The notes beneath the pieces are model-generated. The model saw nothing but the letters and a program-made list of their open reading frames with translations, was not told the origin of the DNA and ran no database searches. A stretch of DNA of 56,650 bases, filler included, from Jimgerdemannia flammicorona (lineage: Eukaryota): NCBI GenBank assembly GCA_003990765.1. It is 3 parts of 3 records of this genome, joined end to end, with 100 filler letters (N's around TTAATTAATTAA, not from the genome) between each part and the next. Parts side by side here need not be neighbours in the genome. Positions count along the whole stretch, not along the records: positions 1 to 18,821 come from RBNJ01002104.1; 2 more parts are not named here. One strand, 5' to 3'. Made by a program: the position numbers and the translations under genes. Below, one piece after another: positions 3,251-49,524 of this stretch. The stretch's first letter is position 1; every line of letters begins with the position of its first letter.

Positions 3251-3689
3251 AAGAGGAGTATTCATCAGTACCAAGATCATCAAGCTGTAGTATAAGAAGG
3301 AGAAAACTATAAATAAGCACAGCTATACTATTGGAAACAAATTCCCACTCAAGACAGAGCTCAAGAAAATACTGTATAAATTTAAGGATATTCTTGCTAT
3401 AGACTTCAAGAATATCAAAAGAAAGACTCTATACTACTATTATAACATAGATATGAGAGATACCAAACCAATTTACCAGAAGGTAAGATCTGTCCCATCA
3501 GCCTACCAAGAGTGGCTCAAAGAAGAAATCAAGCAGATAGAAGAAGTCAGTATCATCAAGAAGACCAATAGCCCCTAGTCTTCACCAGTTGTACTAGCTC
3601 TAAAGAAAGGAAGTAAGTCTGGAGAATTTGCTCCAAGACTATGTATTGATTACAGAAAGCTCAACATAGTCACTAAGAAGGATCACCAA

Positions 3690-5714
3690 TGTAAGCACAC
3701 AACCTCCAAGTCACCAAAATCACATGTCACCCTCTGAACAAAGCCACTGAAATCACATGCGATCTCTGAACAAATCAGGAAATCACCTGCTTGATCATGA
3801 AGCTGAGTCAAACTGAAGTCATGGAATACAAGATTTATATAAACAGAATCTTACCAATCAGGACCAAATATATATATACCGAGTACCGAGACATGTCAAA
3901 CAGAAAATCAAAACAAACAATAACCACAACTTCTGAACATACCCAAACATGACCAGTGAGATCTACAACTGCATCTGTGCTGACATTTGGAATGCTATTA
4001 TCAACTGAGCCACACCCCCTCTACCCCTCATGAATATCCATAGCCTAGCACCCCTTTACTTTGTAGAAGCCCGATAGAATGCCCTGAACATACTTAATGA
4101 GGCCCACCAGATCGGACAAATCTCAAGCTACTACCAGATTGGCTGCCTCTTGGAAGATATGGTCAAACACCACCATGATACAGACATTACTCAGATGTCT
4201 CAACACCAGAAGCTCATTGCTCACAAATATTGAGAACTCTTCTATGAGTATAGCACTGTTATTCCCCACCTCTAAGTTACCATAGCTGAAATGGTTGCTA
4301 CCCTATCCTATGACCAAATCAATAACATGATACAAGAACTCAATCACAAGTACCTTGAGTATGTTGAAACTACAGACAGAACCTTCCCACACCCCAATGA
4401 TCATATCCTGCAAATGCCCCAAGTCAGATATACTATGAAGGACATCTATGATATAATCTACTTCAACAAAGACAAAGTAGAAGACAATGATCCCTTTAAT
4501 GCTGACATGACCTCAAGCCAAGGATCTCTACCAACTCTGATCACACCACCAACCTTGCCAATGAACTTACAACAATTCATAACAGTATATAAGACTTATT
4601 GGGACAATGACCACTAGTATGAATACCAACCTGCATTCACTCCCAATTACTTCAACTACAATGAAGAGACTGGAGAACATAACCTGTACCTCCAGACAAC
4701 CCTTGAGACTGAACCAACCACTCCACTACCCAAGTACGAGCAACATAAACCACAGCCACCAGCATATTACAACCCTGTGACTCATAGTACTATAACCTAC
4801 AGAAGGTATACAGACAGTAAATCTGATGAAAGCAAAGACAATACATCTCTCCTCTGCCCACCAATACCTTATCCAGCATATGAGATGGATGATGTTATCT
4901 TGTAGGATGGAGATGAAGTTTCAATGTATTATTACCTCAGCCAACAAGAAGAAGTAATCTGCAAACCACTTTTCCTAGACAACTATTTCATCAGAGATGA
5001 TATCATTGATGGTGATATTATTGAAGACTACCCAGATAGCGTCTAAACCTATAAATAGCTTAACAGTCATAGTATAATTAGATTAGCCTTGTATGACATG
5101 ACTGTGAACTGACTCAGCAGTCAGAAAATCTCTTGACATTTCAGATCACTCTTGTACTATATGACTATATTCTGACTCAGCAAGGCACTTAGTGCTACAT
5201 CCATATCTAGCATAGTCCAGATAGCCCCTCACTAGTATAAATACCCCCTCTCCCAGACCTCAGAATCTCAGACCTAAATGATTTGAACACACTTCCCCAC
5301 AATATTCCTTTACACAACTACTCCTAGTATAGCAATATCATAAATAGCAAATAAACCTATTTAATAATCCATAAACCACTCTTAAGTAAAATCTGCTCTC
5401 CATTAGGTTCCACTCCTAACCCTGTCACGAAATTTTCTAATTGGGTATTGTCTGCAGCAATACGCCAATTCAACTAAGCTGGCCTTAGTTTCTTGAACTT
5501 TCTGAAATATGAAAAATCCTAAACATCCAGAACTAGTCCGAAAAAGGACTTTGGTTGAGACATCAACCCAATCTTGAAATCAATAAGCATAGAGGATGTA
5601 CTCTATATGAAATTGATCTTGACTATAAGAAAACAGTCTTCCAGAATATCCAGAACTTCCAGAAAACTCTTTCAGAACTATATAACAGTTACTCTAAAAA
5701 GCAACCCTCTTACA
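3690..5714 (+). mobile_element. 2,025-bp solo LTR (family B type) inserted into the RT of element A
   Basis: Termini TGTAAG...CTTACA; exact 5-bp TSD ACCAA (3685-3689, 5715-5719). The RT frame resumes on both sides. The start and the 4993-5290 block match the LTR that follows the PPT at 14846. Confidence 0.93.
3949..5046 (+). pseudogene. ~365-codon ORF of unknown function inside LTR U3, broken by several stops
   Basis: ATG 3949, the ORF-track segment 4291-4617 and TAA 5044-5046 share one frame. Internal stops are TGA/TAG/TAA, consistent with single transitions. Lies upstream of the LTR TATAAATA at ~5236. Confidence 0.8.
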
Positions 5715-8018
5715 ACCAACTACTACCCCTCATAAATGACATCCTTATAACTCTGAGAGATAAAGTATAATACTATAGCACCTTGGATCTATACTCAGAA
5801 TTTTACCAAATCAGACTCACAGAAACAGTAAGTGAGAAATCAGCCTTCATCACTCTAGATAAAATCTATATCTATCTATAAATATCATTTGAAATATGCA
5901 ATACCCCTACAAGCTTCTAGTGAATGATGAACAAAATCTTCTATTATGATATGAGAAGATAGATGATGGTTTATATAGACAATATTATCATCTACAGCAA
6001 AATAGCTGAGAAATATCTGCAGCACATCCAGCAGATGATGGAGAAGCTGAGACAGCATAGTCTTTATATTAAATCTAAGAAGTACAAGTTTGCAGAAATC
6101 GAAATTATCTATCTTGGCCATATTATCAATTGAGATAGAATATACACAGACTCTCTCAAGATACAAATAGTAGCAGTATACCCAAGACCCACTACTATTA
6201 CTGAAGTCCAAGCCTTTATAGGACTTGTCTTATATTACTACTGATTTATTAGAGGATTCTTCAATATTGCAGACCCAATCTATGAACTCAATAAGAAGGA
6301 TACTAAGTTCCAATAGACTGACAGGCAACAGAAAGTATTTAATGAACTTAAGATCAGACTGACTTAGATACCTATTCTCAGAAGATCTGATTGAACTCAA
6401 GAATTCATCCTGTAGACAGATATAAGTACCTAGAGACTAGGAGCAGTCCTAGCTCGAAAGAAAGACAAAGTAGAGTATGTCATTATATATCTAAGCTGAG
6501 AAACCCAAAGAGCTGAAAAAGAATATGAATCCTATAAGTTGGAATGTCTTGCAGTCATCTAGACAGTGGAAAAGTTTCACTACTACTTTGCCAAAAGACA
6601 CTTCACCATTTAGATAGACCACTTAGCCCTTACTTAGCTACTGACTACTGGGTAACCCAAAGGAATCTATGCCAGATTGATTATAAAGTTGCAAGTATAT
6701 GATGTAACCATTGTGTACTACCTAGGAAGAATCAATGCTAATGTAGATACTCTCTCACAGATACTCTGAAAGACTTCCAACCAGTAAATCAATTATAAAT
6801 AAGGAGCTCTACTATGGAATCAATACCTACCTAAGATAGTAAAAGATGCTCCAATATCTGAAAGAATAGATACAAACAATTATCAATAGAACATAGAAAC
6901 AATTTGAAACCAATGGAGAAATATTAAAGAAAGGGAAGCTACTAGTTATACCAGAACATAAGAAGGAGCAAGTAACGAAATCAGTATATAAACTTGACTA
7001 TTTAGGAGGAATGAATATATATGATAAAGCAAAAAGAATAATATAGTGGCCAGGAATAGAGGAAGATATCAGATGATTTGTCAAGATCTGTAATAAATGC
7101 CAGAAATAGAAATAAGATCAATAAAATCAAGCTCCAGGATTAGCATACATAGAACTAGTACTATTTGTCTATATTGTAATAGATGTAATTGGCTTTCTAC
7201 TCTTAACTTTAACTAGTAACCAATACATCATCATCATTATCATAGATCTTTTTATGAAATAGATAGAGGTAGGATCCCTTAAGGAAGCCAATATATAGTC
7301 AATTACTGATTTCTTTTATAAAGAAGTTATCTGCTAATTCAAGACCCCAACACAAGTAACTACAGACAAAGGAACAGAATTTGTGAATTAGTTCTTTGAG
7401 GTTTTCTATAAGAAGTATAAGATTCAGCACATTTAGACTACAGCATATCATCCCTAAGAAAACAGATAGGCAGAAAGGACCAATAAGACCCTCAAGAATG
7501 TTATCATCAAGATCTGCAATAACTATGAAAACTGGGATCACTATCTGTTAATAGTATTATCTACTCTTCAGGATATTCAATCATAAAGTACCCATTTCAT
7601 CTCTCAGGAAATTCTGTTTAGAGAAGAAAGTTCCTAAGAAATCCTATTGTCTAATAGAGATACTGTATGAAAATATATGGATAGAGAGATATGGAGACTA
7701 CATCAAATCAGAAAGAAGACCAAGGATTATATAACCAAGGTACAGATACTATAATAGAATAATGTAGAAAAGATTCACAAGCTCTTGAAGATTATCAAGA
7801 TAGGAGACAAAGTCCTTATATATCAGAATATGGTAGAAGCTTCATGGTCATAAAAACTGGAGCCTAAGTGAGAAGAACCTTATCTTGTGCAAGATATAAA
7901 AGAGATCACCTTTTGGCTATAAAAACTCTCAGACACAATCATCTTTACTACCATTTACTGAAACTAAAGCTAACCAACAGAGTACTGCTACAGCTCTCAA
8001 GATCATCAGTACTATACA

Positions 8019-8427
8019 ATGAGCCATAGAAAGACAATGGTGTACTACTGAGCTGCTAACTATAGAGGAATCCTTTGACAGTATACAAAGTATAATCCAG
8101 ACCCACTTATTACAAATCTCATACTTTAAGGTCTATCAGAATCAAACTGAGTTTCAAGAATACTTCAAGTTGGAACAGCTACTGAACTCACAGCCAGAGA
8201 TGGGAAAAGAAGACTAGATTAGAGAGTGCTAGCTCTCTCATACTCAGATTACAACTGCCAAATGAGTCAACAAGATATTCAAAAATGATGAGCCAGCTCT
8301 AGCCCATCTTTGCAAAGTAGTTCCAGGAGACTTTGGATATATCAAGAGATAATACTAAGAGTATATAATGACACAAATCATACAATATAAGGAGATATAG
8401 ATTATAGAGGTCTGGGAGTTTGAATAG
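8019..8427 (+). pseudogene. Extra ORF remnant between integrase and PPT of element A
   Basis: ...QEYFKLEQLLNSQPEMGKED*IREC*LSHTQITTAK*VNKIFKNDEPALAHLCKVVPGDFGYIKR...EVWEFE*; probably one frameshift near 8150. Confidence 0.65.
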
Positions 8428-8464
8428 AGTGTTTTAGAGATAAATCATCTATTCAGGAGGAAGT

Positions 8465-8920
8465 TGTGACAGTTGATCTGAATTAGGAATATGAATCAGA
8501 AGAATTAGATATTTGATCACAATATCTGAACCTAATTCTCAATATAGTATAGTTATACAAATAGCAGTTGGTTGTTTTACAACTGTTAAAGTTTTCATGA
8601 ATGTTAAATTCTTCACAGATGTTGAAAATTTTGCAGATACTAAAAGATTCAATACTTGCAGAAAGTGACTCATAACTTAGCCACTCTATAGCTAGTAAAA
8701 CTTATATAAATAACCTAATATCTTAGAGTGAATAAACCTCAGATCAAAATAGTTTAAAGCAAAGAGAAAGCAAAGAAACTAGTAAAGTCTGTAGGCAGAT
8801 ATACTTTGAACTCACTCACCCCCACATCTCAAGGACTCCACAGGATCAAAGAAGATCAAGTTTTCAAGATATAGAAATCTGATATATATACTTCTAAGAT
8901 TAAGCATCTACTATATTACA
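8465..8920 (+). repeat. 3' LTR of family A element
   Basis: TGTGACAG...TATTACA directly after the PPT; matches 200-656. Confidence 0.95.
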
Positions 8921-9034
8921 ATATATATATTCATATTAGTATTTGTAAATGTACTTATGAATATTTTTCTTTTATGTTTCTCTGTTTATATATATAAGTG
9001 AATTATATAATAAGTTTTGTTTATTCATAAGATT

Positions 9035-9490: not shown

Positions 9491-11784
9491 TGGGGGTACT
9501 GCTCCAGAGGAGAATGGCCTGCCCTGGAATTTTTAAAAGAGGATGGCTGTTGTTGAGGAGGTGTTGGAGGAAATGTCACAGATGTATGATGAGATTATTA
9601 GCTCTGAAGAGTGGATGGGGGGCCAGTGGCTAGGTCTGGTGTCCTTATTGTTCAAGAATAAGAGAATAAAGGAGGATTGGAGGAACTGGCAGCCAATTAT
9701 ACTCCTGGATATGAATTATAAGCTGGTGATGAAGATCCTCATTGCCAGACTACAAGAAGTGGCTTAGCAGGTCTTAGGGAAGGAGCAGCATGAATTTGTG
9801 AAGAGCTGCTTAATCAGAGATAGCATGGCATGGGTCTATAGTATTATTGAGGGAGTAAGGGTAGCAGGAGTGAATGGCCAACTAGTCTTCTTGAATCAGA
9901 AGAAGGCTTATGATAGAGTGAGGAGAGTATGGCTCACTAAGATATTGGGGTACATTGGGATCCCTGGGAACATTTGCCATTCACTCATTAGTCTGCTGGA
10001 AAGAAGTAGTGCAGCTATCCTGACTAATAGCTATAGGGAGGCAGTTTTTCTGCTAAGGAGAGGAGTACTGCAGAGTGACCTGCTCTTACCAATTCTTTAT
10101 ACCTTTACTCTGGAGCCATTGTTGGATAGAATTTAGTACAGGGTAGGGGAACTGAATATATTGGGGGTTAATTGGAAAGTGAGAGCCTTTGCAGATGATA
10201 TAGTGGTTAGGCTGGGCTCTATGGTAGATGTAGCAGTGCTGAAAGAGATGATGGAATAGTATGAGAGGTACTCAGAGATAAAGCTTAACTAGTACAAGTG
10301 TGAGATAATGGTGCTTGGTGAAGGGGTGGTCAGGGGGGATATCATTGGAAAAATAGTTCCTGCAGGAGAGATGGTTCAGTATCTAGATATCTACTTTTCT
10401 GTCTATAGCTCCCTGCTACCCAGAGAGTAGTGGGAATGTAAGATTGTAGAATAGAGTAAGGCACTGATTGATTGGAGTGGTAGATATATGTCACTAGTAA
10501 GGAGGGTGATGGTTCTGAATGTATACTGGTTGCCAAAGCTGTGGTATATAGGATACCACCTGAACTTCCCTAGCTGGGTGGTTAAGAGACTCCTCAAGAT
10601 AGCCTGCTTCTGGGTCTGAGCTGGGTGGTGCAGTCAGATAGGGTGGGAGATACTGATGATACTGCTGGATTATGGCAGACTTGGTCTGGTGGACCTTACA
10701 AAACACCTGGTCTGTTTGAGAGTATAGTAAATGAAGTATGCTGGTGAGCTGAGGGGGGGGGAATGGGTGCCTCTGATGCAATGGCTGTAGAAGATGCAGG
10801 TGTTACTGAGGGGTAGGTCTGGGGACTTGCTTTCCTTGGTAGCTCTGGAGAGTAGCTGGAGAATGTGATATAAAGAATTCTGGTGGGGAGTGGTAGATGG
10901 AGCACATTGCATTGACATCTGTTGGAGGGAAGCTAAAGGTGAGGAGGGTTGGGAGCTGGCAATGCAGAGGTGAGACCATCTCTTGCTGGGAGATAATCTA
11001 GTAGAGGACTTTTAGTTAGAGGATAGTATGGAGTGTCTTAGGGCTTAAGGGCAGGATCTCTGGCCCAGGGCCTGGCAGAAAGCTAGTATTGGAGAAGGAT
11101 GGAACTGGGCTGGTGTGTGGTCATGGAATATAGCAGTGATGAGATGGCTCCTGCCTAAGTATTGGGTGGTGTGGTGGCAGTTTTTATAGTGAAATGTGAT
11201 ATTGAACTTCTGATTGGAGTATCTTATAGCAGGTGGTAAATTTGAGTATAAGGAGTATTATGATATAGAGCAGGAGAGAGGGGTGGTGCAGATCCCAGAA
11301 CATGGTTAGGAGAGTGCAAGAGTATGGAGATGTTCTGGAGGATAATTGGAGGGAGGCTGGGGGTTCCTATACTAGACCCAGTGCATGAGAAGAGGTGGGG
11401 AGCCCTACAGTCTAGATTGGTGGACAGGGTGGGGAATGAGTGACTGATGGTAGAGTGGGCCTTAGCAGTATGGGTCAGGCTTACTAAATATTAGCAGAGT
11501 GTCTTTGAGAAGAGTTCCAGGTTGGCAGCAGAGTTGAGGGAGGCACAGTAGGAGAGACTGGTGCTGGATCTTCTGAATGGTTGGTGGATAGATTGGAGAC
11601 CCAAGGGGGGGAGTCAGAAGGGGAGGAGTCAGAAGGGGCTAGTGAAGAGGATTGTACTAAAGAGTAGTGGGTAAGTTGTGGTATCAGAGATGGGAGTTAC
11701 TCTTGCGAGAGATGGAGGGGGGAAATCTCTCAGAGGGATTGGATAGTGGACTACAATACAGTATTCATAAAGATGTAGAGGGGG
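9491..11784 (+). mobile_element. 5'-truncated L1/Tx1-type LINE (RT plus C-terminal region)
   Basis: DWRNWQPIILLDMNYK, FLNQKKAYDRV, RGVLQSDLLLPILY, AFADDIVV; homologous to 35680-37737; no poly(A) of its own, runs directly into the 1.2-kb element. Confidence 0.92.
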
Positions 11785-12992
11785 CTCCTTTCTCTGCTAC
11801 CTTACTGATCACAAGGTTTGGTAGGTGACCTTCCAAGTCCCCTTTCCCCTATTATTACCCCCTCTACCTCAGGTTGGTTTGCTGTGCCTGCATGGGCATG
11901 GTGGGAGGAGGGCAATGGTGATGAGTTACCCCTTTATTGGTGTTGGATCGGTGTCTTCTCTACTTTTTTGTAGTTTCTGGTATCTTCAGCTGTATCTGGA
12001 GTGCATCTGTTTTGGTGTGGCACCTTCTTCCTTTTGCCATCGCCAATAAGGTGCTGTCTTGGTGTGTCTCAGGCTACATAGGAAGTCGGCTGACCTTGGG
12101 CATCAAGTGCTCAGTATAGGTTACCTGCAGGTCCTCAGTGTCTATAGTAGGGCCCTCTGGCTTTGGCAAGCTTCCTGGTGAGCGTGGTTCTGGCATAGGT
12201 GACTGTTTTTCAGGTGATATTGGGATGGGAGAGAGGGGAGATGGCCATCACAGATAGGAGGAAGGGTGATTATGGTAAACCAGTAGGGTGCCAGGCTGGG
12301 GGCAGTCATCAGGGCTGGGGTAGACAATATTTTGGTAGGGCCTTTCAATTGGCTGGTGGGGAGTGGAGTGGTGCAGGGGCCAGCATCCTGGCTGTACTCA
12401 ACTGGAACCGGGAGCTGATGTGGCAATGCGATTGAGGCCCGCAGGCTTGGGGAGTGGGACCTTTCTCATTTAGCAGTACCCGACTAGAACTGGAAGCTGA
12501 CATGGTAATGTGATTGAGGCCTGCAGGCTTGGGGAGTGGGAGTGGGGTCTCTTTAGGCCCTAGCCCATGTGTAAGTCCTTTGAGGAAGGTGCTGCATGTA
12601 AGTCCTTTATTCACCCACTTTGAATCTACTTTGCTATCTATTGGTTGGTTGGGGGGTTTTTTCTTTGCCTCAGGCTTTCTTTTGGGGTTTGGGGGACTAT
12701 TCTTTATTCAGTCCCAGCACTGCTAGATCTGACACGTAGGTGTGCTCTTGCATGTAAATGATGATCCAGTCCTGGTGAGCAGACAAGTCTAGTCTATATT
12801 GTGGGGGTCAACATAGCCAGTATTTGACAGGTATAGCTGGAGTGGTGGGACTGCTGGATAATTTAGTAACCTAGGTTAATAGGGGGATATTGTTCGGTGG
12901 GTAGTGGGGGAGGATTTTGGCCTATATAGTCTAGGTTCTCTTTCAATAAAAATCTGCAGGACTATGAGTCTATTAAAAAAAAAAAAAAGAAA
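11785..12992 (+). mobile_element. ~1.2-kb non-coding poly(A) retroposon, copy 1 (subtype I)
   Basis: Starts CTCCTTTCTCTGCTACCTTACT and ends AATAAAAATCTGCAGGACTATGAGTCTATT(A)n; homologous to four other copies in the window. Confidence 0.9.
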
Positions 12993-15943
12993 GCTCAAGT
13001 ACTCTAAGAAATCCTGAGCAGTAATGATGTTGACAAGTATCCTGGTATCATTAATATCAACTGAAAGATAATGCTATCTACTACAAGAACAGATTGTATG
13101 TTCCAAACAATCAAGATCTCTGAAGGATTATCCTATTCAAATATCATGATACCCCTACAGCCAAATATCTAGAATTTGATAAATATTATGAAGTTATTTT
13201 CTGAAACTTCTATTAACCTCACATAGCAGACCAGCTAAAGACCTACATTACTTCTTGTAATGCCTGCCAATACAACAAGTCCTCAATACTAGCAAAACCT
13301 GGCCTACTCTACCCTATCCCAGTACCATTTACTAATTGGAGACAAATCTCAATGGACTTCATTATACAACTACTCCAAACCAAGAACAGAAAGATGCAAT
13401 TATTGTCTTCATGGACTACCTTAGCAAATAAGCCCACTTTTTATCAACTACTACTACCATAATAGCACCAGACATTGCTACACTCTTATATGACAACATC
13501 TTCTGCTATCATAGTCTTCCTAAGATTATTATTAGTGATCAAGACCTGGAATTTATCAGCCATTTTTGAAAAGCCCTCCATGCATACCTTGGAATAAAAC
13601 TTGCACTATCTACAGCCTTCCACCTCAAAACTGATGGTCAAACTGAAAGAATGAACTAAACTCTGGAATAAATACTAAGAAACTATGTTTCTTACAGACA
13701 AGATGATTGGCATGAACACCTCACTACAGTTGAGTTTACCTATAACAATAGTAAGCAAGCCTCTCTTGAAATGACCCCATTCTTCACCAATACTAAACAA
13801 AATCCAAATACTCCTCTGATACTTATCCAAACCACTGATGAACTCTCCACTGTTGAAGCTGTTGAAGAATTCCTGCTCTGAATGTGCAATTTAAGCTAGA
13901 TTGCAATCAAGAATTTATCCTGAGCTTAAGAACAATAATCATAATATATCAACTAGCACTGATGAGAAGAAACTTTTGATATTGGAGAAAAGGTCCTACT
14001 AGATATTTGAGGATACTAAGTTGATAACCTCAAGCACAGACTATCTACAAAGTGAAACAGCAAATTTATTAGACCATTTGAAGTCATTGCATAAGTCTTG
14101 CCTACTTTCTACAAATTGGTACTATCAAATACTATTAAGATTTACTCAGTCTTCAATGTCCAGTGTCTCAAATGATACAATGAAAATAATGATGAGCTAT
14201 TCCCAAACTGAACCACAGAACCACCTATATCTGTCATTATTAATGACCAAGAAGAATACAAAGTTGAACAAATTCTCAACAAATGTAGCCACAAGAACCA
14301 TCCAGAGTACCTTGTCAAATGGAAAAGTTATCTGATCTATGATATAATATGGAAACCTAAGACTAATCTCCAGAATGCTACTGACTTAGTTTAGGAATAT
14401 GATTCCTTAAACAACTGAAATCCAAACACTCCTACACCTATCAGTATATATTATATATTACTCTTCAGAACATCATAATCATCATGAACAAAATCAAGAA
14501 CTCAGCAAGTCAAGACAAAATGAATACTGACCCTCTAGAAAAATAGCAAAACTAAAAGCCAGCCTATTCTCCCTGTACCACTGGTGGGAAACAAGATATT
14601 TAAAAAGATTTCTTAGAGAAAATTCTCCAGTAGTAAATAATATCAGAATCACTTCTGGTGCATAGTATTAAACATACAACCCTTTAATATACAAATTCAA
14701 CACATTAGGTAACTGTACTATAAGTATACCACTTTCTGAAAAAATTAGACATTACTGGACTTTTGATCATCCAAATAGTGTAACAATACTAGACCCAAAC
14801 TAGAAGGCCTCTGATAAGGATGTCAAAAGCTAAGAAGGGGAGAGTTATAAGCATACAACTCCTAAGCCACCAAAATCATATGTCATCCTCAGAACTAATT
14901 TGAAAACCACATGTGAAGACTACAAAACAAGTTACTAAAGAAGATTACCCAGTTACACAAAATATACCAGTAAGCATGAGAACCTACTGTCAAGATACAA
15001 GAATACCAGAAGAAGTACTACAACTATAAGACCAATTCTAAATCTCTACAACTAGTTTTGGTATACTGTACTATTATAAAAGAAAACTGAAGTACCAAAC
15101 TCAAACTGAGATGAGAAGAACCCTATCTCATCTATCAGAGATTCATAAACTATACTTATCAACTCAGGGCCAAGATATATTATAACTATATAAGACTCAT
15201 CACTTAGTAGAAGCAAAATACATTTGAATAACCCCATTTACTCTATCTATATTACCTTCATTAGAGAATAACAGATACTTCATCTAAACTCAAGAAAGCT
15301 GACATTGTCAAAACCAATCTCAAGTCTATCCATGTGATAGATATTACTACTAGAAATTATCTCAGATTATAGAAAATATCATTTCTAAGAGGTTTGAATC
15401 CCCAGTATGACATTGAGAGTCCTTGCCCTAGACAAGAATGGCCAGTCCTTGCAAATGTGCCAGCAGTCCAAAAAAAAAAGAGAACTAAGATCTGTTATCC
15501 TTATACAACTGCTACTATCAAGGACAGTCTTAATTTTGCAAGAGATAGAGGTAACAATACCTTAAAACTAATGATATTAAAAGTCAGAAACCGCTCAGAC
15601 TTTACCAGAGATGATATCATTAATAGTAATATCATTAAAGACTACCCAGACAGTATCTAAATCTATAAATAGCCTAACAGTCATTAGTATAGTTAGATTA
15701 GCCTCATGTAATATAACTGTGAACTGACTTAGCAGCCAGATAATCTCTTGACATATCAGATCATACTTGTACTATGTAACTATATTCTGACTCAGTAAGG
15801 TACTAAGTACTATATCTATATTCAGTATAGTCTAGATAGCCCCTCACTAGTATAAATACCCCCTCCCTCAAATCTCAGAATCTCAGACTTAAAGACTTGA
15901 ACAGACTTGAATACAACTTCTGAGCACTTCTTTACAATATCTC
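12993..15943 (+). mobile_element. 3' part of a chromodomain Ty3/Gypsy element (family B): integrase, chromodomain, PPT, 3' LTR
   Basis: YITSCNACQYNK, ISMDFI, IISDQD, AFHLKTDGQTER; chromodomain EEYKVEQILNK...EYLVKWKSY at ~14250-14380; PPT AAGAAGGGGAGAG 14832-14844; LTR from 14846, cut by a LINE at 15944. Confidence 0.92.
14846..15943 (+). repeat. 3' LTR of element B (truncated) with an ORF remnant in U3
   Basis: First ~60 bp match 3690-3750 and 15606-15905 match 4993-5290; the middle is unrelated; TATAAATA at 15851. Confidence 0.85.
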
Positions 15944-18821
15944 TTTTTTTTTTTTTTTTTTTTTTTTATAGTTACTTGGACTCTGCCATTTATTACCAGT
16001 CTATTAATAAGTTTACAGTATCTCCTCTTACTACTCAATCCCTATAGGGGAGCCTCTCTCTGTATCATCATAAATAAAGACTATCTTCTCACCTGCTACT
16101 CCTATCCTCCCTCCACTCTGCCTACAGATCTTCTCCACTAAGTGATGCCTTCAATCACCCTATAACCCCAACCAAGCCACCAGCCTGTCAAGGTATCTTC
16201 CATAAGACTATGCTAGTGCAACAACTGGTCCCCCAAGCCAAGCCTCCTCCCATCTTTAAAAATAAATAGCCAGTGACTGGCCAGCCTCACCCAAATTGCC
16301 AAAACCCAGCCTAAGGTAAGCCACTCCTTTCTCACCCCCCCCCCACCAGTCTATCCCTCAAATCCTCCCACTGACCCCATGTGCCATTTCCCCTATATTA
16401 CTCCCAAACAATCCCCAATAGCCCACTAAAAGTCACTAAGTACCTCACACTCTCCTAGCCAATATTCAGGTATCTGTATATATCCCTCTTCCTGCCCTAC
16501 ATTGTAACACTCCTCACAGTCAAAGTAACCCCCTTTGATAAGGTAACCCAAGTAGAAGTTAAGCATTACATTCCTCCTCAGTATGCACCACCAGACCACC
16601 CAGTACTTTGATAGTATCCACTTCCTCACCTCTGCACTCCAGGCCCATATACTATATCAGTTCCACTCTTCTCTGATACCCACTCTCTGCTATCTGCTAG
16701 ATCACAGATTCTGGCCTTGTCTCCTTTGGTAATCTATCTCATTACTAATGTCAAACTCAATTTAGAAAATGCCTCTCAGCAACACTTGGTCCCATCTCCA
16801 CATCACCAGGTCCCAAGCCACCTCTCCTTCATTATCCTGTCAATAAATTCCAATGCAGTGCACCCCCTCTACTACTCTCTACCAGAAGCCTTTGTATCAC
16901 AATTGTGCAGTATTCTGAAGCCCAACTAATGATAAGAGATCACCTGTCAAGTCTCTTAGTGAGGATCTTATCTCCCAGACTTTCTGCAATAGGGAGACCC
17001 AACTGCCCCCTCTCAATTCTACCACTCTCTTTAACCACTATACTCTCAAGTAGTGTAGTCTCTTCAGAAAGTCAACCAGCCTAAGCCCTCCTCTTGCCAC
17101 CAGTAAGAATAAGACCTTCCAACTTATCTGACTCCTTCTTCCAGCCCAGATCCACCCCTTGGCCAGCTTCATCAATCACTTCACTACCCAGGCTGGGAAG
17201 TCCATATGATAAGCCAGATACCACAACTTTGGCAGCCAATAGATGTTCAAAATCAAGACATGCCCTGCTAGAGATAAGTAGCAACCCCCCCCAGCTCCAC
17301 AGGGCCTCCCCCCAGATTCCAACCCTCTGCTCCCACCAAAGTCTAGATAGTACTGACCCATATACTGACAAATAAATATCCAAGTACTACACTATCTTAC
17401 CAGTAGGGATAATTGTTCCAATAACATCCCCTCCCACCAGACCATTACCCAACACCATTGTTTCACACTTATGCTAATTGAGTTTAGCCCCAGAGTTCTC
17501 CTCATACCACTCCACCATCTCCTTGAGCTCCTTAATATCTGCAATAGACCCTAGGCCAACCATTATGTTATCTGCAAAGGCCCCAACTTTTCACCCAATT
17601 CCAAAAACAGAGAGCCCTACTATCTTCTGCCTAATTCTATCTATTAGGGACTCCAGGGAAAGAATATATAGAATGGGAGATAGTGGGTTCCCCTGGGGCA
17701 CACCCTTATCTAGGAGAAATGATACCCCTCTATGTTCATTATATATGAGTGCAGCCCTACTCTCTTCCAGTAGACTGATTATTGCTGATCTGAACTGATG
17801 GGGTACTCCAGTCCTATCCAATACTTTTACCAGCCAGACTTACTGCATCTGGTCATAAGCCTTCTTCTGGTCTAAGAAGACCAGTTTCCCATCCAGTCCA
17901 CAAGCTCATACCCCTTCAATAACTCTATATACCTAGGCTGTGCTATCTCTAATGAGCTGGCCTCCTACAAAGCCTCTCTGCTCAATATCCAAGACTTGCT
18001 GGGCCACCTTCTGTAGCCTCATGACCACCACCTTAGTTACCAACTTTCTGTTCATGTCTAGTAGCATAATTAGCTGCCAGTTCTTCTAGTCCTCTCTCCT
18101 TCCTTTGTTCTTGTAAAGCAATATCACTAGCTCCAGATCCTGCACCCCCACCCATCTCTCTGTCTGTAATATAAAGTTATACAATATTATCATCTTACTC
18201 AGTACTCCTGGAACTCCCACCATCTTCTTCCAGAAGTCCCAGAGCAGACCATCCTCTCCAGGTACCATGCCCAGGGTTGTCACAGTAAGAACCTGGTGGA
18301 TCTCTTCCTCTTGTACTGACAACACTAAGTCACCCAGCCCATCTACTCATGGAGAGTGCCAATCTTCCAATGCCCAGTCAATGGCAGCAGCATCTGCCCC
18401 ACCCTCCTCCTCACTCCACAATCCACTCCATCACTCTTTTAATGAACCAAGAATGTCTTGTATACTATATACTAGTATACCATCAGAGTCAAGCACCCCT
18501 TCCCACCTTTACTGTACCCTTCTCACCTGAAGGACCCTTATGAGATACTTAGAGGGCCTCTCCCCTTCCTCCAAACCCTGTCAATGAAGCCATGCTGCCA
18601 AGCTCTATACCTTTGCCTCCTCCTCATCCTACAGTACCTGTTGTAATTCTCCAACCTCCATTTTCACCCTCATTAATCTCCAATCCTCTCTCCCCTCTAC
18701 CATCACTAGCTCTACCCAATTCTCCAAGAGTCTAGTCAGTCTAACAGAAGCCCATCTCACCTATCACCTTCTCTGCTTCCCAGCCTCCCTACTAGCCTCA
18801 CTTCAGTAGCTCCCTTTTTTT
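15944..18821 (-). mobile_element. L1/Tx1-type LINE, 3' half with poly(A) tail, running to the contig end
   Basis: Poly(T) 15944-15967; minus-strand VPGEDGLLWDFWKK, KGVPQGNPLSPILY, FDCEECYNVG...PEYWLGEC. Confidence 0.93.
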
Positions 18822-18921
18822 NNNNNNNNNNNNNNNNNNNNNNNNNNNNNNNNNNNNNNNNNNNNTTAATTAATTAANNNNNNNNNNNNNNNNNNNNNNN
18901 NNNNNNNNNNNNNNNNNNNNN
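18822..18921. other. Artificial contig-joining spacer
   Basis: 44 N + TTAATTAATTAA (stops in all six frames) + 44 N. Confidence 0.98.
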
Positions 18922-20195
18922 TTTTTTATAATAGAATTAAGTCTTTACAAATTTTAATTAAAGGGAATCTAGACTATATAGGTCAAACCCCTCTCCCACC
19001 CCCCTCTCTCTAAGTACTATTCTTTTATTAATCTAGGCTACTAAATTATTCAGCAGTCCTACTATTCTAGCTATGTATGATAAATATATATACTATCTCT
19101 CACTATATAGATCAGACTTATTTACTCACTGAGACTAGATAATCATACTAATAATGCAAGAGTATACCTATATATCAAATCTAGCTACACTGAGACTGAG
19201 TAATAAATAGTCTTCTGAATTGGAAATAAAATTCTAAAAAAGGAGAAAACCCCCCAATCAATTAACAAAAAGCAGAGAGAATTCAAAATAGGTGAATAAA
19301 GAACTAAAATACAAAACTCTCTCCAAAGGACTAATATATAGGCTAAGGCCTGAAAAGACTCCAATTCTACTCTCTGAGTCTATAGGCCATAATTTTATTA
19401 CTATATCAGCTTCTAGTTCCAGTCAGGTACTATTTAATAAAAAAGATCTCAATCTCTAAGCCTATAGGTCTCAATCATATTACGATATCAGCTTCTAGTT
19501 CCAGTCAGGTACTATTTAATAAAAAAGATCTCAATCTCTAAGCCTATAGGTCTCAATCATATTACTATATCAGCTCTTAGTTCTAGTTAGATATAGCTAA
19601 GATACTAGTCTCTATACTACTCTACCTTCAGTCAGCCAATTAGAAGACTTTATCAAGATAGTATCTATAATTCTCTAATAGCTATCACTAGTCTAGTATC
19701 TGACTAGTCTACTATAATCACTCTTCCACCAATCTGTAATAGCCATTGTCTCTCTTATCTCAATACTACCTCAAAAACAGTCACCTATATCAGAACTATA
19801 CTTATCAGGAAGCTTGCCAAAGCTCAGAAGGTCCTACCACAAATACTGACAATCTCTAGATAACTATACCAATACTTAAAACTCAAGATTAGCTGACTCT
19901 CTATATAGCCTAAGAGATACTGAGATAATATATAGTTGATGATAGTAAAATAAAGAAGGCATTACACTATAATAAATATATCCTAGATATAGTCAGAAGT
20001 ATCAAAAACTATAAAAAAGTGAGAAAGTACTAATTTAATATTATTAAAGAAATAACTCACTACCATTGTCTTCCTTCCTCTACCCTTTAATAGATACAGC
20101 AAACTATACTAGGGTAGAGGGGATAAGGTTAGAGAAAAAGATATTCAGACAATTATCTGCTGATATCTTGTAACTAGTATAGTAGTAGAGAAAGA
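18922..20195 (-). mobile_element. ~1.2-kb non-coding retroposon, copy 2 (subtype I, three internal repeat units)
   Basis: Reverse complement colinear with 11785-12992; ~82-bp unit present three times at ~19370-19595. Confidence 0.88.
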
Positions 20196-20358
20196 AACAG
20201 TTGAGATATTTCTTAGCTATCTTACTATAGATGATCATATTATCTATATAGACCATCATTCATTTTTCTATATCTTCTCAGAAGATCTTATTTATCATTC
20301 TCTAGAGTATTGGACATTCTGAATAATATTCTTAGATAGATATAGATTCTGTCTGGAG

Positions 20359-20470
20359 TAGTGCTCTAAATGAGTCAATTCAAATCCCCCCCTAGGGGGA
20401 TTGGATAGGGGGTGAGTTCACTGTACTTATATGGGATAGATGGGTGTAATAAAGGAAGAGTCCAAGTGAC

Positions 20471-20511
<41 letters not shown>

Positions 20512-20981
20512 AGTCAATTCAAATCTATTTAATTTTAAGTAGCTTATAGGTGATACAATTTCAATATATTAATATTATTGTTTTAATTTCCAAATTAGAT
20601 AATAAAATATTATTATCAATAACTTGATAAAATATTTGAATGATCATAGTATCATTTTAAAGCCCTTAAAGAGACCTTTCTAGTAATATCAAGAATACTG
20701 AAATCAGATAATATATTACCAAGTTATTAATGAAAACAATCTTATGAAGAAATTTCCAAAATTGATAAGTCAAATGTTTTTCTTAATAACTCAGTAATAC
20801 ATCATCCCATTTTAATATTCTTGGTATCATTAGGAAGACCATACTAAGGGCTTTCAAATTATATCATGATTATCAAAATTTCATCAAGTTATTGATATAA
20901 ATATTTAATTATCTAATTTGGAAATAAAAATAATAATATTGATACTTTGAATTGATTTAAATCAACTCATTCAGAGCTCTA
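20359..20981. mobile_element. Fold-back MITE (hAT-like)
   Basis: TIRs TAGTGCTCTAAATGAGT / ACTCATTCAGAGCTCTA; 8-bp TSD GTCTGGAG / GTCTAGGG; interior is a long imperfect palindrome centred at ~20755. Confidence 0.85.
20387..20509 (+). mobile_element. Extremely 5'-truncated LINE (about 87 nt plus poly(A))
   Basis: Matches the LINE 3' end at 37838-37925; TSD (AAA)TGAGTCAATTCAAATC at 20368-20386 and 20507-20525. Confidence 0.92.
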
Positions 20982-22250
20982 GTCTAGGGTAATGAAGGCT
21001 GACTTTTCACTGGCTTCCTTGGTAAGGCTGATTTGATTAAATACTAAGTATAAATCTAAGATAGTATAGTATTATACTTTATCTCCTAGTGTTACCAGGA
21101 TGTTACTGATGAGGAGCAGTGGTTGATAATTCTTTTTAGTAACTTTGTTGAGTTTTCTATAGTCTGTACAGAGTCTTGGGGCAAATTCTTCTAGCTTGTT
21201 TCCTTTCTTTGGGACTAGTATAATTGGTATAAATCTAAAAACTAATAACTTTTTTGATAATACCAGCTTCTTTTATCTAATTTATTTTTTTTCTGAGCCA
21301 TTCATAATATGCTGGTGGAATTAGTCTTGCCCTTTGGTAGATTGGCTCAGTATCTCCTATATCTATAACATAATAGTAGTGTGGTGTCTTTTATTTAATA
21401 TTCTTAAAATCAGTAGTAAGGATATCTCCAAATTTATATAGTAGCTTCTTGAGTTTCTTTTTAAATAGAAATTCATTTCTAAAAGTATAGCTATATATGC
21501 TTATCTGTAATTTCCTTCTTTTTGTAGTCTAATTTAGTAATATTAGTACTGTTAAAAACTCGTTTTTCTATAGATCCAAATCCTCTCCTTTCTCTTCTAT
21601 TTTCTAGCTTCTTGATATTCCAAATCTTAGATTGCAGTATCTGAAAGATCAGTATTTATATGAGTTAGTCTTTCTTTTGTGACTATAAATAGGATTGAAA
21701 AGTTATAGTTTCTACCATTAAGCAAGATTTCTCTAATATAATCAGAATTAATAACTCCTCTTTCAATCAAAATTTCACTCTTTGCTAGACTGCTGCTTGT
21801 CTCAAATATTCCATTATAATTCTTGAAAATAGTTATTACTAGACTAGTTATAAGTAGGATTATTGTCTGATGTTTAAGAACTGTCTTCTCAATTGTTATA
21901 ATATCTATTTCAGCCACATTTTCTGACTTATATTCTGGCAGAACTGCATTAGAGTAAATCCTCTAAATATTGATCTTGATTTCTTCTTCATCATCACTAT
22001 TCTCTAGAAAAGCTGATGGTTCATCTAGTTAGTCTTCTATTTCTTACCAATTCTGTCTTCTTTTCTTCTTTTTATAATGAATCTTATGGATCTTAGCAAT
22101 ATATTGATAGCACTTATCTATATGCGTCATATGGTATATTTGAATTTTATGAGGACATACTTCTTATGGGACATATTCTTCATCAATCTTCTTTCATCAG
22201 TCTTCTTTCCTGATCTATCTGACCCTGAGTAGTTACCATATAGGCTTCTT

Positions 22251-22904
22251 AATTTTTTTTTTTTTTTTTTTATAGTCCCTTGGACTGCCTTTTATTACTG
22301 ATGTCTATAATTCTAACAATACAATGTCCCCTCCACCCTCAACCAATGCCCCGTAGATCCAACCCTCCCCCCTCGACCTCTCCCTGCCTGAGCACTACCC
22401 AGTTACCCACTACCTGAATCCTCCCACCACTCTTCCAGGAGATACACTGCACCAAACCCCTGCGGTACCCCCCACCCAGCCCCCAACCTTGCCACCAGCT
22501 ATTCAAAATGTCCAATAGCAATTATTCCCAATGTGCTACCTTGTCCCCAACCCCAACCCACCACCCCTCCTCAAAGACATGAACCCAATGTCCAGCTAAC
22601 TCAACATATATGGCCAAAGCCCAACCAAGGGTCAGCCATTCATCCCCAACCCCACCCACCAGTCACCAGTGGAGGTCTCCCCATCTCCCCCCTTTCTCTC
22701 CCTCTGAGGCACCCAGCCCTAACTGGTCCATAATATATCTCCAAAACTCCTCCAAAACTTCGCACTCACCAAACCAATGTTCAGGTGTTTGTACCATGCC
22801 TCCCTCCTGACCAATGCCAAAACAATCCTTGCACTCGAACACTCCACTGGCTACCAAGTGCCCAGACTGATAGTTCAACATCACATTCTGCTGTAGGACA
22901 TACC
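22251..22904 (-). mobile_element. 5'-truncated LINE
   Basis: Poly(T) tail; FECKDCFGIG...PEHWFGEC; 16-bp TSD ACCATATAGGCTTCTT (22235-22250, 22905-22920). Confidence 0.93.
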
Positions 22905-25484
22905 ACCATATAGGCTTCTTCTTACTTGCCATCTTCTTTCTCTATCTTTGAGAGTACTTCTTTATTAATATTAATAGGAATTCATATCTTTTATTCTTGA
23001 TAGATAATCTGCATTTTCTAGAAATTTATGTTAATTATAGCCTTTGCTTTGTAAAGCCACTAGTTGCTCCTCTAAACATGATAGAGATATCTCAAATCTT
23101 CTTTAGAGGGGTGACTCTTGTATTATCTGCTATAATGAATATCAATTTTATAGCTTTTTTAATTTTCCAACCAAGACAGTCTATAGCTGTCTTACTGGAG
23201 AGGTATTCTTTTCTTTCTATATTAATGATAGCTTCAAGGATCCTGTCCTCAATCTGGTAGCTAATATATATAGAGATCTTATAGTTGTCTTCTTTACTTT
23301 ATTCACCTAAATTCTTCTATACATTATTGGCTTCAACTATCTTCTACTCTTAATTCTTAACTATTTCTGAGAGTCTCAATCTTATTTACTATCTTGAGAT
23401 AGAGATTTCTGTCAACTCTCTAAAGGTTGTATTGACCTTTTGCTAGAGAGATCCTTGAAGATATAATATTAAAAGGAATTTCTCTTTTGTAGCTTCTTCC
23501 TCTTTTCTTTTTCAATATTATGAGTATTACCTTAGATAATATCTTCAACTACTTATTTGAGTTCTATATCTCAATTCATTTTTTCAGCTATAATTTCAAT
23601 TTTTGTAGATACTTCTGTCTGTTCTTCTACAGACTATTCTACTACTTTCTTTTTAGATCTTCCTGGTGGCCTCTTGTAGGGTTTCTGACAGACATTCTTT
23701 TTAGAGATATGTAAGGACTAGATAAGCTTCTCATTATTTCTCTTCCTCTGAATCTCTAATCTCTCAAAGGTGATAGTATTGGTCTATTTATAGTTCCTGA
23801 TAGCATTGTTTGGCTGAGTCTTATACTTAGTCTCACTCATATATTTATAGGAGTAGTGGCCTTCTCTGTAAGTACAGTAGATTTCTCTCTTCTTATCTAT
23901 AGTAGTGGTAAACATCTCAACTGAGCAACAATCTCTTCCTCTGATTTTCTTTACTATATCTTCCAGATGAGTAGTTATTTCAGCAAACTTTTTTACAAGT
24001 TCCTCCATATCATCACTATTCCTTTTACTACTATATAACCTTAAATTGAGATATATTTCAATTGATTATAGTTATAGGAATTACACTGGTCCCCTTGGGT
24101 ACCTCAATTTTAACTTCTATAACTCTCTTTATTATGTAGTCTTGAGAGTATCTGACTATCTAATATTGCTGAGCATAAGTTACCTTCTGTGCTACGTTCA
24201 GAACTATTAGTACTAATCAGATTGCCATAGCTATCTCTGTTTGAATTTCTTTCATAAAGATTGCTTCAGCTACTTCATTTCAATAATATTAGCATAATTG
24301 ATCAATAGTAGATTTAGATATAGAAGATATTTGGGGCTTCATTTATTCCTTAATAGATATTATTGAATTAGTTCTTCAGAACCTACTTTATTTTATCTAT
24401 ATAGTAGGTAGCTTGCAACCAGGTCTTCTATATTATCAATATTAAAGCATTATTATTTTCAGTATGATTTATAGCTATAAATTTAGTTCTTAATAATCCT
24501 TGGGGACTAAATAGTATTAGAACCACTTGTTATTGAGCTGATAGAGTCTTTATAGTAGTATATTGTTTGAAATAATTAAGGAAGGTAATAACTTATTCAT
24601 TAGTTTATAGAATACTAGTAATCTTATATCTATCTTTTCTATATGTCTTGATTTTATTTGAGTATGTATTTAGATAGTAGTTGTTGTTTATTATTTAGCT
24701 TAAAAGTGAGAGATTTATCTTGAATTACTAGTTAATAAGTACTAAGTTATAACATAGCAGATATATACTAGCAAAAGTATGGTAAATTTCTTTATCTTGA
24801 ATACTTGATCTGATTTGACTCTTCAGAGTCCTTGGGTATAGGGGTGGGTAAGTTTGAAGTATATTTATCTACAGACTTACTAGTTTCTTATCTCTTTGCT
24901 TGAACTATTTTAATCTGCGATTTATTTACTCTATATACTAGAGATATTTATATAAGTTTATATATAGGCTATATAATAACTGTGTAACTTAGTAGAGTGA
25001 GGAGTAGAGAAGAAGAGTAGAGTATTGTTTATTATTTTAGATAGTACATATTTATATATTGTATAATATAACTTAAAGATAATATAGTTGTATATATATA
25101 AGTCACATTATTGAAATATTAAAATAATAGAAATTTCAATATTCTTAATCAATGAGATAATATGCAATATAAGTAAAAATACAATATATTGCAAGAATAT
25201 AGTATAACTAAGTAATAACTATAAAATGACTGTGAATGCACTAAAAGAATACTATCTACCTAGACTTAAAACATGAGAAACTATAGTGAAAATAAAGGAT
25301 ATAGAAAGATTCCAATAGTAGAAAATCTCAAATATAGAAGAAGAAAGAAAGAATAATGCAATATAATACTTGAAGAGAGAGAAATATAAAGAGATATATT
25401 GTATTATTTTTCTGCTTCTTTTTTGTTATAATATATCTCATAATTATCTATTATCTATTACTGATATATATATATAGTTTATTA

Positions 25485-25585
25485 TAAGACTCATTTCTTT
25501 AGTACATTGCTTAAATTTAGGTCCTATAAGGACTTTGGTGAGTGAATCTGCAATTATATACTCTATAGAGATATATTCTAAGTAT
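25485..25585 (-). pseudogene. Copia RNase H C-terminal fragment
   Basis: LEYISIEYIIADSLTKVLIGPKFKQCTKEMSL (Copia ADxLTK motif). Confidence 0.8.
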
Positions 25586-27279
25586 TGTGATGAGCAATAG
25601 AATTGTACTACCAAATTCATAAATTGGCCATATATCATATCTAGTGCACTAAGCAACCAAGACTACTTTACTGCACCAATCTGTATAATTAGCCAGAGAT
25701 ACCAGAAACAGTATGTTTATCTGTACTAAGGAGGTACACTATACTAAGTGAGTACACCATACCCAGTGGGTACACTGTATCCTCCAGGAATACTTACTAT
25801 AGATAGTAATCTATAGTTAGCAATATAGTAATCAGTAGCAATCACAACTGTATAAATTACCTCAGAGACAAGAGTGAATAAACCTCAGTTTGAAAAGTTG
25901 AAGCAAACCAAAAAAGCCTCTAAATATTGAGCATTGGTCCCCTTTTACCTACTCTGGTCCACTTTCCAATACAAAGATTGATTAGTATACTTACCAGATA
26001 AGCCTGAAGATTTGCTAACAAAGTTCAAGAAAGAACTTTGCCACCTTTCAAAGAGAAATTCACTACTTAAGAAATAAGTCACTGATTCTAAGTTACCCAC
26101 ATTCCCAGAGAGCCCACTATATGGAACCTTACTATAAGCCAGTCTATTAGATGCAACTTTGCAGTAATTCATTCATACAAACAAAGCCAGTCTTTGAGGT
26201 AACTTGCCAAGAATCTGCAACACCTGAGTTATCTGCACTATCTGAGTTATTATTCAAGAAGCCTGCTGATTCCAGAGAATCTGTACCAAATCAAGTTATC
26301 CACCAAATCACATGAGGAACCCATCATACTATAGAGAGATCACTACACCAAAATCATCATGCCAAGATTGTCATACAGAAATTGCATACTTTTGGAGATC
26401 ACTATACTATACAAAAGATCATCATATATACTTTTAGAGAACAGCTGCACCACAAATTTCTGCTACTCCCAGAGAACTGCCCCAATAAGGAAATCAGCAT
26501 ACAAATTCCTTGCAGATATCCAGCTTTGACTATTATACCACTTAACACCAAGGACCTTAGGAAACTTAGAACATTTTGTTGCTTTTGACAAAGTAACTAG
26601 AGGTTCAAGCCAAACTACATCAACTCCCAACCTTGTAATTTGCCTCTATTGAGTCAGGCATATTACAAATGAGAACTCAACTAAGAAGATTTCAAAATTC
26701 CAGATGGATGAGGCACCATAGGTGCTGAAGTCTGTCCCAGACTTTGCGAGCTTGGGGAGGACTATTAAGAGTTGATTTCTGCTGTCTAGAAAGTGATGGC
26801 AAACTTTATTTGTCTTAAAAATAGTGGTTTTACATGTAACTGTGAATTCATCTGTCTAAGACATATGTGTGAGACATTTGTATAAAATATAGTAATAAAA
26901 GTGTCTCTGCTCTCATAGAGTTCCCTTAGCCAAAAAAGATTAGCAGTGAGCCCAAAGTAGAAGTAAGAAAAAAAGAAAAAAAAAAAAACCCCCCTGGTGG
27001 CCAGGGCCATTGGGGAAAAGAAGAACCCATAATAAGGAAATGGAAAGAGTGAGAATGGGTAGGAAACCAACTCTTCATGGTCCTCCCCAAGCTCATAAAG
27101 TCTGGGACAGACTTTGGCACCTACAGTGCCTTGTCCATCCGGGACTAAGCTTTGCTTGGTCTTGGACCATTTCAGAGTTAGTTGTTCATAGATTGGAGAT
27201 GAGTGGGGCACTGGGCTAGCATAGTGGCCTTGTACCAGAGGACTGTGTATACTAAAGATTTTGCCCAAGAGGTCTTGGA

Positions 27280-28200: not shown

Positions 28201-28354
28201 AGATTGTGAGCTGGCTCTGCCAGGACCATGGTGTCTGGGGAGTGCTGCTGATTAGCCAGGCAAGGGCATCCCAATGGCATGTCTGTATGGCCACCATCAG
28301 AGCCCAATGTGGAAGGAGAATCAGGGGGGCTACTGCCATCCCCAGGAGTTTGGG

Positions 28355-28600: not shown

Positions 28601-28659
28601 GTGGTGTAGGCATTGGAATACTGCTGGGTGCAGCTTCCAGTCATTGGGGTCAGGATGGA

Positions 28660-46013: not shown

Positions 46014-46086
<73 letters not shown>

Positions 46087-49457: not shown

Positions 49458-49524
<67 letters not shown>

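Follow-up and report, generated by a model that had tools for sequence, protein, structure and literature searches.

Long terminal repeats (LTRs) are usually treated as non-coding control regions, and pairs of LTRs are used as neutral clocks. Here we describe two related LTRs in a stretch of 56,650 nucleotides from the genome of Jimgerdemannia flammicorona (assembly GCA_003990765.1), which consists of three parts joined end to end and is hereafter called the window. One is a solo LTR and the other, its sister, is the 3' LTR of a chromodomain Ty3/gypsy retrotransposon; they are alike at their start and around their promoter motifs, and between these parts each carries a core of its own. The window as a whole is a eukaryotic nest of decayed retroelements, insertions within insertions, with almost no CpG left. 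Our evidence comes from the window itself, from two protein relatives (P0001 and P0002) of an open reading frame (ORF) in the solo LTR, and from contigs of public sequencing runs. Contigs from four runs of four studies (X1, X3, X5 and X7 among them) were placed on the window at a likeness of at least 80%; the depth of metagenome contigs is not to be read as copy number. Sequencing runs that share words with the window do so for at most 0.11 of the sampled words, and none of these runs is recorded as RNA.

The solo LTR and the sister LTR

The solo LTR occupies 3690-5714 on the plus strand (2025 bp). It has the termini TGTAAG...CTTACA and is flanked by the 5-bp target-site duplication ACCAA, read at 3685-3689 and again at 5715-5719. 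TG...CA ends with a short inverted repeat and a target-site duplication within 4-6 bp are the marks of a Ty3/gypsy chromovirus LTR. The LTR sits inside a plus-strand Ty3/gypsy element with protease, dUTPase, reverse transcriptase (RT), RNase H and integrase, whose own LTRs lie at 199-657 and 8464-8921, and it interrupts the RT region of this host. Two sequences preserve the empty site: a paralogous minus-strand element (21123-21516) that is uninterrupted at the insertion point, and a contig of run X1 with a joint from 3663 to 5729. In contigs of run X3, TGGTAGCAGCAG follows directly after the end of the solo-type LTR, at a single loose end, and we take this motif to resemble a primer-binding site. 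No 5' LTR of the solo/sister family was found within the window. The initial annotation of this DNA had named the solo LTR as the partner of the sister; the pairing stands, and the solo LTR is larger than had been implied.

The sister LTR (14846-15943, plus strand) starts with TATAAGCA, where the solo LTR has TGTAAGCA. Its first letters, TATAAG, are one transition away from a TG start, and its terminal end is missing. Just upstream, a polypurine tract, AAGAAGGGGAGAG, can be read at 14832-14844. About 440 bp separate the LTR start from the 3' part of a plus-strand pol gene (13109-14403), in which Pfam recognises an integrase zinc-binding domain (Integrase_H2C2, 13109-13285, E = 8.5e-09), a Tf2-1-type SH3 domain (SH3_Tf2-1, 13984-14178, E = 6.4e-09) and a chromodomain (Chromo, 14257-14403, E = 5.6e-09). 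This polypurine tract and the integrase, SH3 and chromodomain regions before it identify the sister as the 3' LTR of a chromodomain Ty3/gypsy element.

The sister LTR had earlier been taken to span 14846 to 15943. Its start is borne out, while its supposed end is the point at which a retroelement of the non-LTR type has been inserted on the minus strand. The 3' end of this element, with its poly(A) tail seen as poly-T, occupies 15944-16497 and cuts the LTR at 15943; it aligns continuously with a second copy at 22253-22812, and its body extends to the right of 16497, with an RT fragment at 17594-17839. A 67-bp insertion at 15944-16010, suggested by a 14-bp "target duplication" (15930-15943 and 16011-16024), was rejected because past it the alignment with another copy of the poly(A) element goes on without a break. 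When solo positions 5295-5714 were aligned to 15944-30000 in search of the remainder of the sister LTR, the score stayed at the level of shuffled sequence.

Shared flanks and U3 cores

The first of the stretches that the two LTRs have in common lies at their start, where 14848-14898 in the sister corresponds to 3692-3742 in the solo LTR (82.4% over 51 bp by BLASTN) and the similarity continues weakly in alignment as far as 14929 and 3777 (73.6% over 87 columns). This shared 5' block of the sister LTR (14846-14929, plus strand) includes an ATG at 14911, followed by TGA where the solo LTR has CGA. On the promoter side, 15606-15908 corresponds to 4992-5294 (85.5% over 304 columns by BLASTN), with 37 transitions and 5 transversions between the two copies. 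Both resemblances had been noticed in the initial annotation, as the first ~60 bp and a block at 15606-15905, and both are real.

The promoter-side block, on the plus strand in both LTRs, begins with the end of a reading frame and its stop codon, at 5046 in the solo and at 15660 in the sister LTR, and continues with two TATA-like TATAAATA boxes and two motifs of the TGACTCA type, TGACTCA being a basic leucine zipper (bZIP) site as bound by AP-1/Gcn4-type proteins. In the solo LTR the boxes are at 5050-5057 and 5236-5243, and TGACTCA occurs at 5110-5116 and 5173-5179, within a 63-bp duplication. In the sister LTR the boxes are at 15664-15671 and 15851-15858, with TGACTTA at 15725-15731 and TGACTCA at 15788-15794. 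Two IUPAC patterns made from the TATA block had 0 matches in viral, metagenome and prokaryote-genome contigs.

The stretch between the shared blocks measures about 1250 bp in the solo LTR, compared with 707 bp in the sister. The sister-specific core of the unique 3' region (U3), at 14930-15605 on the plus strand, shows no homology that could be detected either with the solo core or with the rest of the window, and the solo core likewise matches no other place in it. The earlier statement that the ~700 bp in the middle are unrelated is confirmed at the level of DNA, where a transition-tolerant local alignment of the two cores scores 96 against 101.4 +/- 12.3 for 100 shuffles. It is confirmed at the level of protein as well: tblastn with P0001 and P0002 finds a match to the sister LTR at a 19-residue tail only (15601-15657, E = 0.004). 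An alignment of the two middles as proteins, which the initial annotation had named as a sign of plain divergence and hence as speaking against its view, is not seen.

Plain divergence would mean that the middles are orthologous U3 and ORF sequence that has drifted past recognition while selection held the flanks. U3 is in general the fastest-evolving part of an LTR, as is common knowledge and as the accessible part of a study on fungal LTR subfamilies also indicates (PMC10787394). The flanks, however, are as alike as pairs of LTRs that were identical at insertion: the LTR pair of the host element retains 83.6% identity over 463 columns, with 59 transitions and 8 transversions, and a second pair, at 39253-39655 and 48941-49337, is 82.4% identical over 403 columns, with nearly all differences being transitions. 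With 85.5% in the shared block, the flanks of the solo and sister LTRs could therefore have been near-identical when both copies were inserted, which leaves little time for the cores to diverge. Moreover, the core lengths are unequal (about 1250 and 707 bp), and no residual similarity appears even with the less decayed P0001 and P0002. We thus regard plain divergence as very improbable. Near-identical flanks beside cores that share nothing call for segmental replacement or recombination, and the two LTRs look like mosaics, in which homologous flanks enclose non-homologous U3 cores with abrupt borders, rather than like products of slow divergence. Up to 15943, where the sister is cut, their difference is confined to U3 upstream of the TATA box, between conserved flanks, as is the case in U3-variable LTR subfamilies.

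Reading frames and the shared tail

The solo LTR contains a decayed sense ORF of 429 codons plus stop (3757-5046, plus strand) that lies wholly inside U3. In its frame, from the ATG at 3757 to the TAA at 5044-5046, there are 8 stops in 412 core codons, compared with 19 and 38 in the other two plus-strand frames; a second in-frame ATG, at 3949, is the start point of P0002. An exhaustive HMMER search of 1.84 billion representatives yielded three proteins at E <= 0.001. P0001 (247 aa, 61% identity, E = 1.4e-93) corresponds to the final 251 residues of the ORF and has the same tail at its end, and P0002 (128 aa) is 81% identical (E = 5.3e-60); the third, P0003 (E = 2.7e-05), is a repeat protein and was dropped as a low-complexity match. 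P0001 and P0002, although partial, are free of stops; together they cover six of the eight stops of the window and have a sense residue at all six. As judged from these comparisons, the solo-type ORF is a real though decayed orphan gene inside an LTR.

A word-based protein search with the ORF gave no match among proteins of 248-790 residues, a range outside which both P0001 and P0002 fall. No Pfam family was found for the ORF, and none at E <= 1 for P0001 or P0002; nor did the solo-type protein have a sequence match in the PDB or a lead in the Atlas. Its AlphaFold model, based on a three-row alignment, has a mean predicted local distance difference test score (pLDDT) of 31.9 and is unusable, with helices around residues 65-205 and the rest unstructured, and the Atlas model of P0001 (pLDDT 0.39) is equally unusable. 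Between Pfam, the PDB, the Atlas and this unusable AlphaFold model, no relation in sequence or fold to a known accessory protein was found. A protein-based locus search of contig collections returned 1 and 178 pattern stretches, none of them confirmed by tblastn.

Copies of both LTR types occur elsewhere. In run X1, single positions of the solo core are covered by 21-24 contigs and those of the sister core by 8-11, and fewer contigs cover both cores in X3 and X7. Since both cores are covered by contigs of several runs, both LTR types are multi-copy families and not one-off events. This bears on the idea that one or both middles are unrelated transposons nested in a short U3, or owe their position to an assembly join, in which case they would be uninformative on LTR evolution. 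Dense nesting is indeed typical of this window, both borders are abrupt, and close to those of the solo core there is an imperfect inverted repeat of 14 nt (3762-3775 and 4985-4998). Inverted repeats of such quality are common, however, with 7 pairs per LTR, no target duplication is visible at the borders, and, as stated above, neither core recurs in the window. Furthermore, the frame of the solo ORF crosses both borders, and P0001 matches it to the last residue. A contig of run X3 (record 16) spans 14842-15134, that is, from the start of the sister LTR into its core, and contig depth is continuous across both LTRs in three runs. Nested insertion or misassembly therefore seems improbable to us.

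The sister core had previously been described as the remnant of another ORF, with its start at the ATG at 14976. This ATG opens a stretch of only 17 codons, out of frame with the tail; the ATG in frame with the tail is that at 14911, in a position matching the solo ATG at 3757. The frame from 14911 contains 10 stops, compared with 15 and 14 in the other frames, and all 10 fall in its first 150 codons. Its last 95 codons (15373-15657) are open; with the shared stop (15373-15660, plus strand) they make up a stretch longer than any other open one in the six frames of the sister LTR. For the 76 open codons upstream of the block, P was 0.001 when the whole core was shuffled and 0.0018 for its last 300 nt (5000 dinucleotide shuffles each). 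At 15229, a stop of the sister frame is a sense codon in some contigs. The frame has no protein relatives among proteins of 136-436 or of 30-135 residues, no Pfam hit and no credible Atlas lead. We regard the sister core as a possible coding sequence.

Both frames finish in the same C-terminal codons and the same stop, as the initial annotation had pointed out; we count 19 such codons. The further claim that they supply a constant C-terminal peptide is not supported. The tail is identical at 47/55 positions (85%), and so, in effect, is the non-coding remainder of the block along its length (64/74, 68/80 and 81/94; 85-86%). All 8 differences in the tail are transitions, and five of the eight change the residue. 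The tail is no better conserved than its non-coding neighbourhood, and its identity thus gives no sign of constraint at the level of the peptide rather than of the DNA. A perfect 10-bp palindrome, ATGATATCAT, overlaps tail codons in both LTRs (4997-5006 and 15611-15620) and may be a candidate DNA site for a binding protein, which would explain the conservation of the tail as DNA.

These results have to be set against the proposal that U3 serves as a modular slot for coding sequence, with template switching exchanging several unrelated ORF bodies while a constant start and a constant acidic C-terminal peptide with a function of its own are retained. In its favour, both LTRs share an ATG (3757 and 14911) that stands in the frame of the common tail; the open stretch of 95 codons in the sister runs into this tail (P about 0.002); the independent protein P0001 has the same terminal tail; and there are hints of additional upstream contexts of the block (record 18 of run X5 and an excess of depth, see below). 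On the other side, the 10 stops in the first 150 sister codons are near the chance rate and barely below the counts in the other frames (15 and 14). The sister frame has neither relatives among proteins of 30-436 residues nor a Pfam or Atlas lead, conservation of the tail does not exceed that of the non-coding DNA behind it, with five of eight differences being non-synonymous, and the cores seen are two only. We consider such a slot unlikely. Its most specific form, in which copy-choice swaps unrelated protein bodies between a fixed start codon in the first 70 bp of the LTR and a fixed acidic 19-residue tail with a second role as the opening part of the promoter module, appears quite doubtful. 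If a coding slot did exist, each new cargo would be expressed and tagged alike, and both LTRs as well as every solo LTR would contain it. A cargo slot with a constant peptide is a minority reading for us, because the second cargo is no more than a possible ORF, the tail bears no mark of constraint as a peptide and the cores seen number two. What survives of the exchangeable cargo slot that the initial annotation had seen in U3 is the mosaic with its segmental swap of the core; the second core, with an in-frame ATG and 95 open codons at its end but 10 stops and no relatives found, may or may not be a conserved ORF.

Origin of the two LTR types and the surrounding nest

The explanation that we favour, with some confidence, is that the two LTRs represent subfamilies of one chromodomain Ty3/gypsy lineage, in which the core of an ORF was swapped between conserved flanks. 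It builds on the anatomy of both LTRs, the unrelatedness of their cores, the real ORF of the solo type and the multi-copy status of both cores; the direction and mechanism of the replacement and the mode of ORF expression are what we infer from them. In the solo type, a genuine accessory sense ORF of about 370-430 codons lies wholly in U3, upstream of a promoter module with TGACTCA and a TATA box. This ORF would sit at the 3' end of the element RNA and is copied into both LTRs in each round of reverse transcription. The sister type has the same LTR start with its ATG as well as the same promoter-proximal block, which begins 19 codons before the ORF stop, while roughly 1.2 kb of ORF core would have given way to some 0.7 kb of unrelated DNA. 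This replacement may have arisen once, by non-homologous recombination, and cores could have passed from one lineage to another through copy-choice template switching, or through gene conversion, in the conserved flanks. The shared tail would be the portion of the old ORF 3' of the breakpoint, within a block kept for cis-acting reasons.

Several points weigh against this reading. P0001 and P0002 are single proteins from short metagenome contigs (998 and 1180 nt) and may or may not stem from LTRs. The R and unique 5' regions (R-U5) of the sister are lost, which limits the comparison to the part up to 15943, and the window has one copy of each type. The ancestral state, and hence the direction of replacement, is likewise presumed. 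A second ORF is possible in the sister, because the ATG at 14911 is in frame, 76 codons are open and the stop at 15229 is a sense codon elsewhere. The summed depth in run X1 is greater over the block (2129) than over the two cores combined (about 830 for the solo and 200 for the sister core), and a contig of run X5 (record 18) fits the solo block from exactly 4992, preceded by 125 unlike letters. In X1, moreover, loose ends after 5291 resemble the downstream sequence of the sister. The depth excess, the X5 contig and the X1 loose ends are hints of further mosaic forms or cores.

The nearest described case is crapaud, a chromodomain Ty3/gypsy element known from the Podospora anserina complex. 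Its LTRs are divided into 14 subfamilies; what sets these apart lies in U3, before the TATA box, and the remainder is conserved (PMC10787394). The accessible text of that study describes recombinant LTRs and proposes that they arose by template switching or by gene conversion. The divergent U3 of crapaud, however, is shorter than 200 bp, with no ORF noted in it in the same portions of the text (PMC10787394), whereas the cores described here measure 0.7-1.25 kb and one of them is a protein-coding ORF. A further difference is that decay in the present window takes the form of CpG loss rather than of classical repeat-induced point mutation (RIP). Exchange of segments between family members during reverse transcription has also been described for recombinant LTR retrotransposons in transposition bursts, as far as the source is accessible (PMC5668417); in the window the exchange is inferred from sequence, and no direct event is seen.

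An ORF inside the U3 of an LTR is known from mouse mammary tumor virus (MMTV), whose sag gene, in the accessible part of the source, resembles the solo-type ORF in being a sense U3 ORF, present hence in both LTRs and in solo LTRs, and in being accessory, that is, dispensable for the replication machinery (PMC12548423). MMTV is, by contrast, a vertebrate retrovirus, and no relation in sequence exists, with no Pfam family at E <= 1 for P0001 and P0002. Sag varies at its C-terminus, to go by the same excerpt (PMC12548423), while the C-terminus of the solo-type ORF, as predicted from its sequence, is the constant part. Outside retroviruses such as MMTV, we found no description in the literature of a retrotransposon whose LTR fully encloses a sense ORF, in a search that was limited and is no proof of absence.

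Bdelloid LTR elements are reported to have additional ORFs (aORFs) as well. In plants, the aORFs of LTR retrotransposons are internal, and phrases for a position within the LTR occur 0 times in a review of them (PMC7264820); ORF0 of Retrosat2 lies upstream of gag-pol, as given in the available part of its description (PMC3485330). The solo-type ORF shares with aORFs that they are lineage-specific extra ORFs of unassigned function which diverge much faster than gag-pol (PMC7264820 and, within its accessible portion, PMC3485330). It differs from them in position: aORFs are internal, located either ahead of gag or in the stretch from pol to the 3' LTR, and the solo ORF is wholly inside the LTR.

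With a full accessory gene in the U3 of a 2-kb LTR, coding capacity would become a property of the repeat as such, and a sister LTR in which other DNA has taken the place of the gene body between intact flanks strengthens the interest of such a coding LTR. The pair offers a concrete system for the gain, loss and transfer of retrotransposon accessory genes between lineages. It is also a warning that dating and family assignment based on LTRs can fail where LTRs are mosaics.

Among the other retroelements of the window, two Ty3/gypsy relatives, the host of the solo LTR (199-8921, plus strand) and an element at 20946-24757 on the minus strand, carry, in the interval from protease to RT, a dUTPase domain (2883-3236 and 21630-21962, respectively). 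The LTR pair at 39253-39655 and 48941-49337 brackets a chromovirus-like element on the minus strand (39976-41316), whose integrase region is a distant relative of that of the sister element (58% DNA identity). Copies of the poly(A) non-LTR type are found at 9669-12990 (plus strand), from 15944 to about 19600 (minus strand), at 22253-22812, at 20389-20510 and in the region of 26-38 kb. They have a G-rich sense strand, with a GC skew of up to +/-0.48, and three of them share the same 3' motif just before the poly(A). The 3' region of a poly(A) element is present in at least four copies in the window (11784-12990, 42640-43764, 44180-45313 and, inverted, 46065-47254) and is the most abundant piece in the sequencing runs, with depths of 960 in X1 and 841 in X5. 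Several contig joints start exactly at 11784/11785, which suggests that a separate short element or a tandem unit starts there. Long homopolymers occur at 46014-46088 (about 75 T) and at 49454-49524 (about 50 T followed by about 20 A), and four runs of 44 N form two pairs (18822-18921 and 37738-37837) at matching places in two inverted copies of one repeat. Rfam and tRNA scans found no RNA families or tRNAs in the window, and a scan for bacterial promoters and terminators was set aside, the element being eukaryotic.

Editing of one strand from G to A was considered as the cause of the G-poor plus strand and was rejected because the differences from other copies are about symmetric, with 400 places at which an A of the window is a G in contigs and 516 at which a T is a C. 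TpG and CpA are in excess across the transposon nest, and changes relative to other copies are mostly transitions, so that the loss of CpG looks like methylation-type decay and not like classical RIP targeted to CpA. In most 2-kb bins of 1-56000 there are 0-10 CpG, compared with 44 in the last 650 bp (56001-56650), where the GC-rich start of an ordinary gene with TPR repeats (TPR_1/TPR_2, E about 1e-8; 56445-56650, plus strand) marks the edge of the nest.

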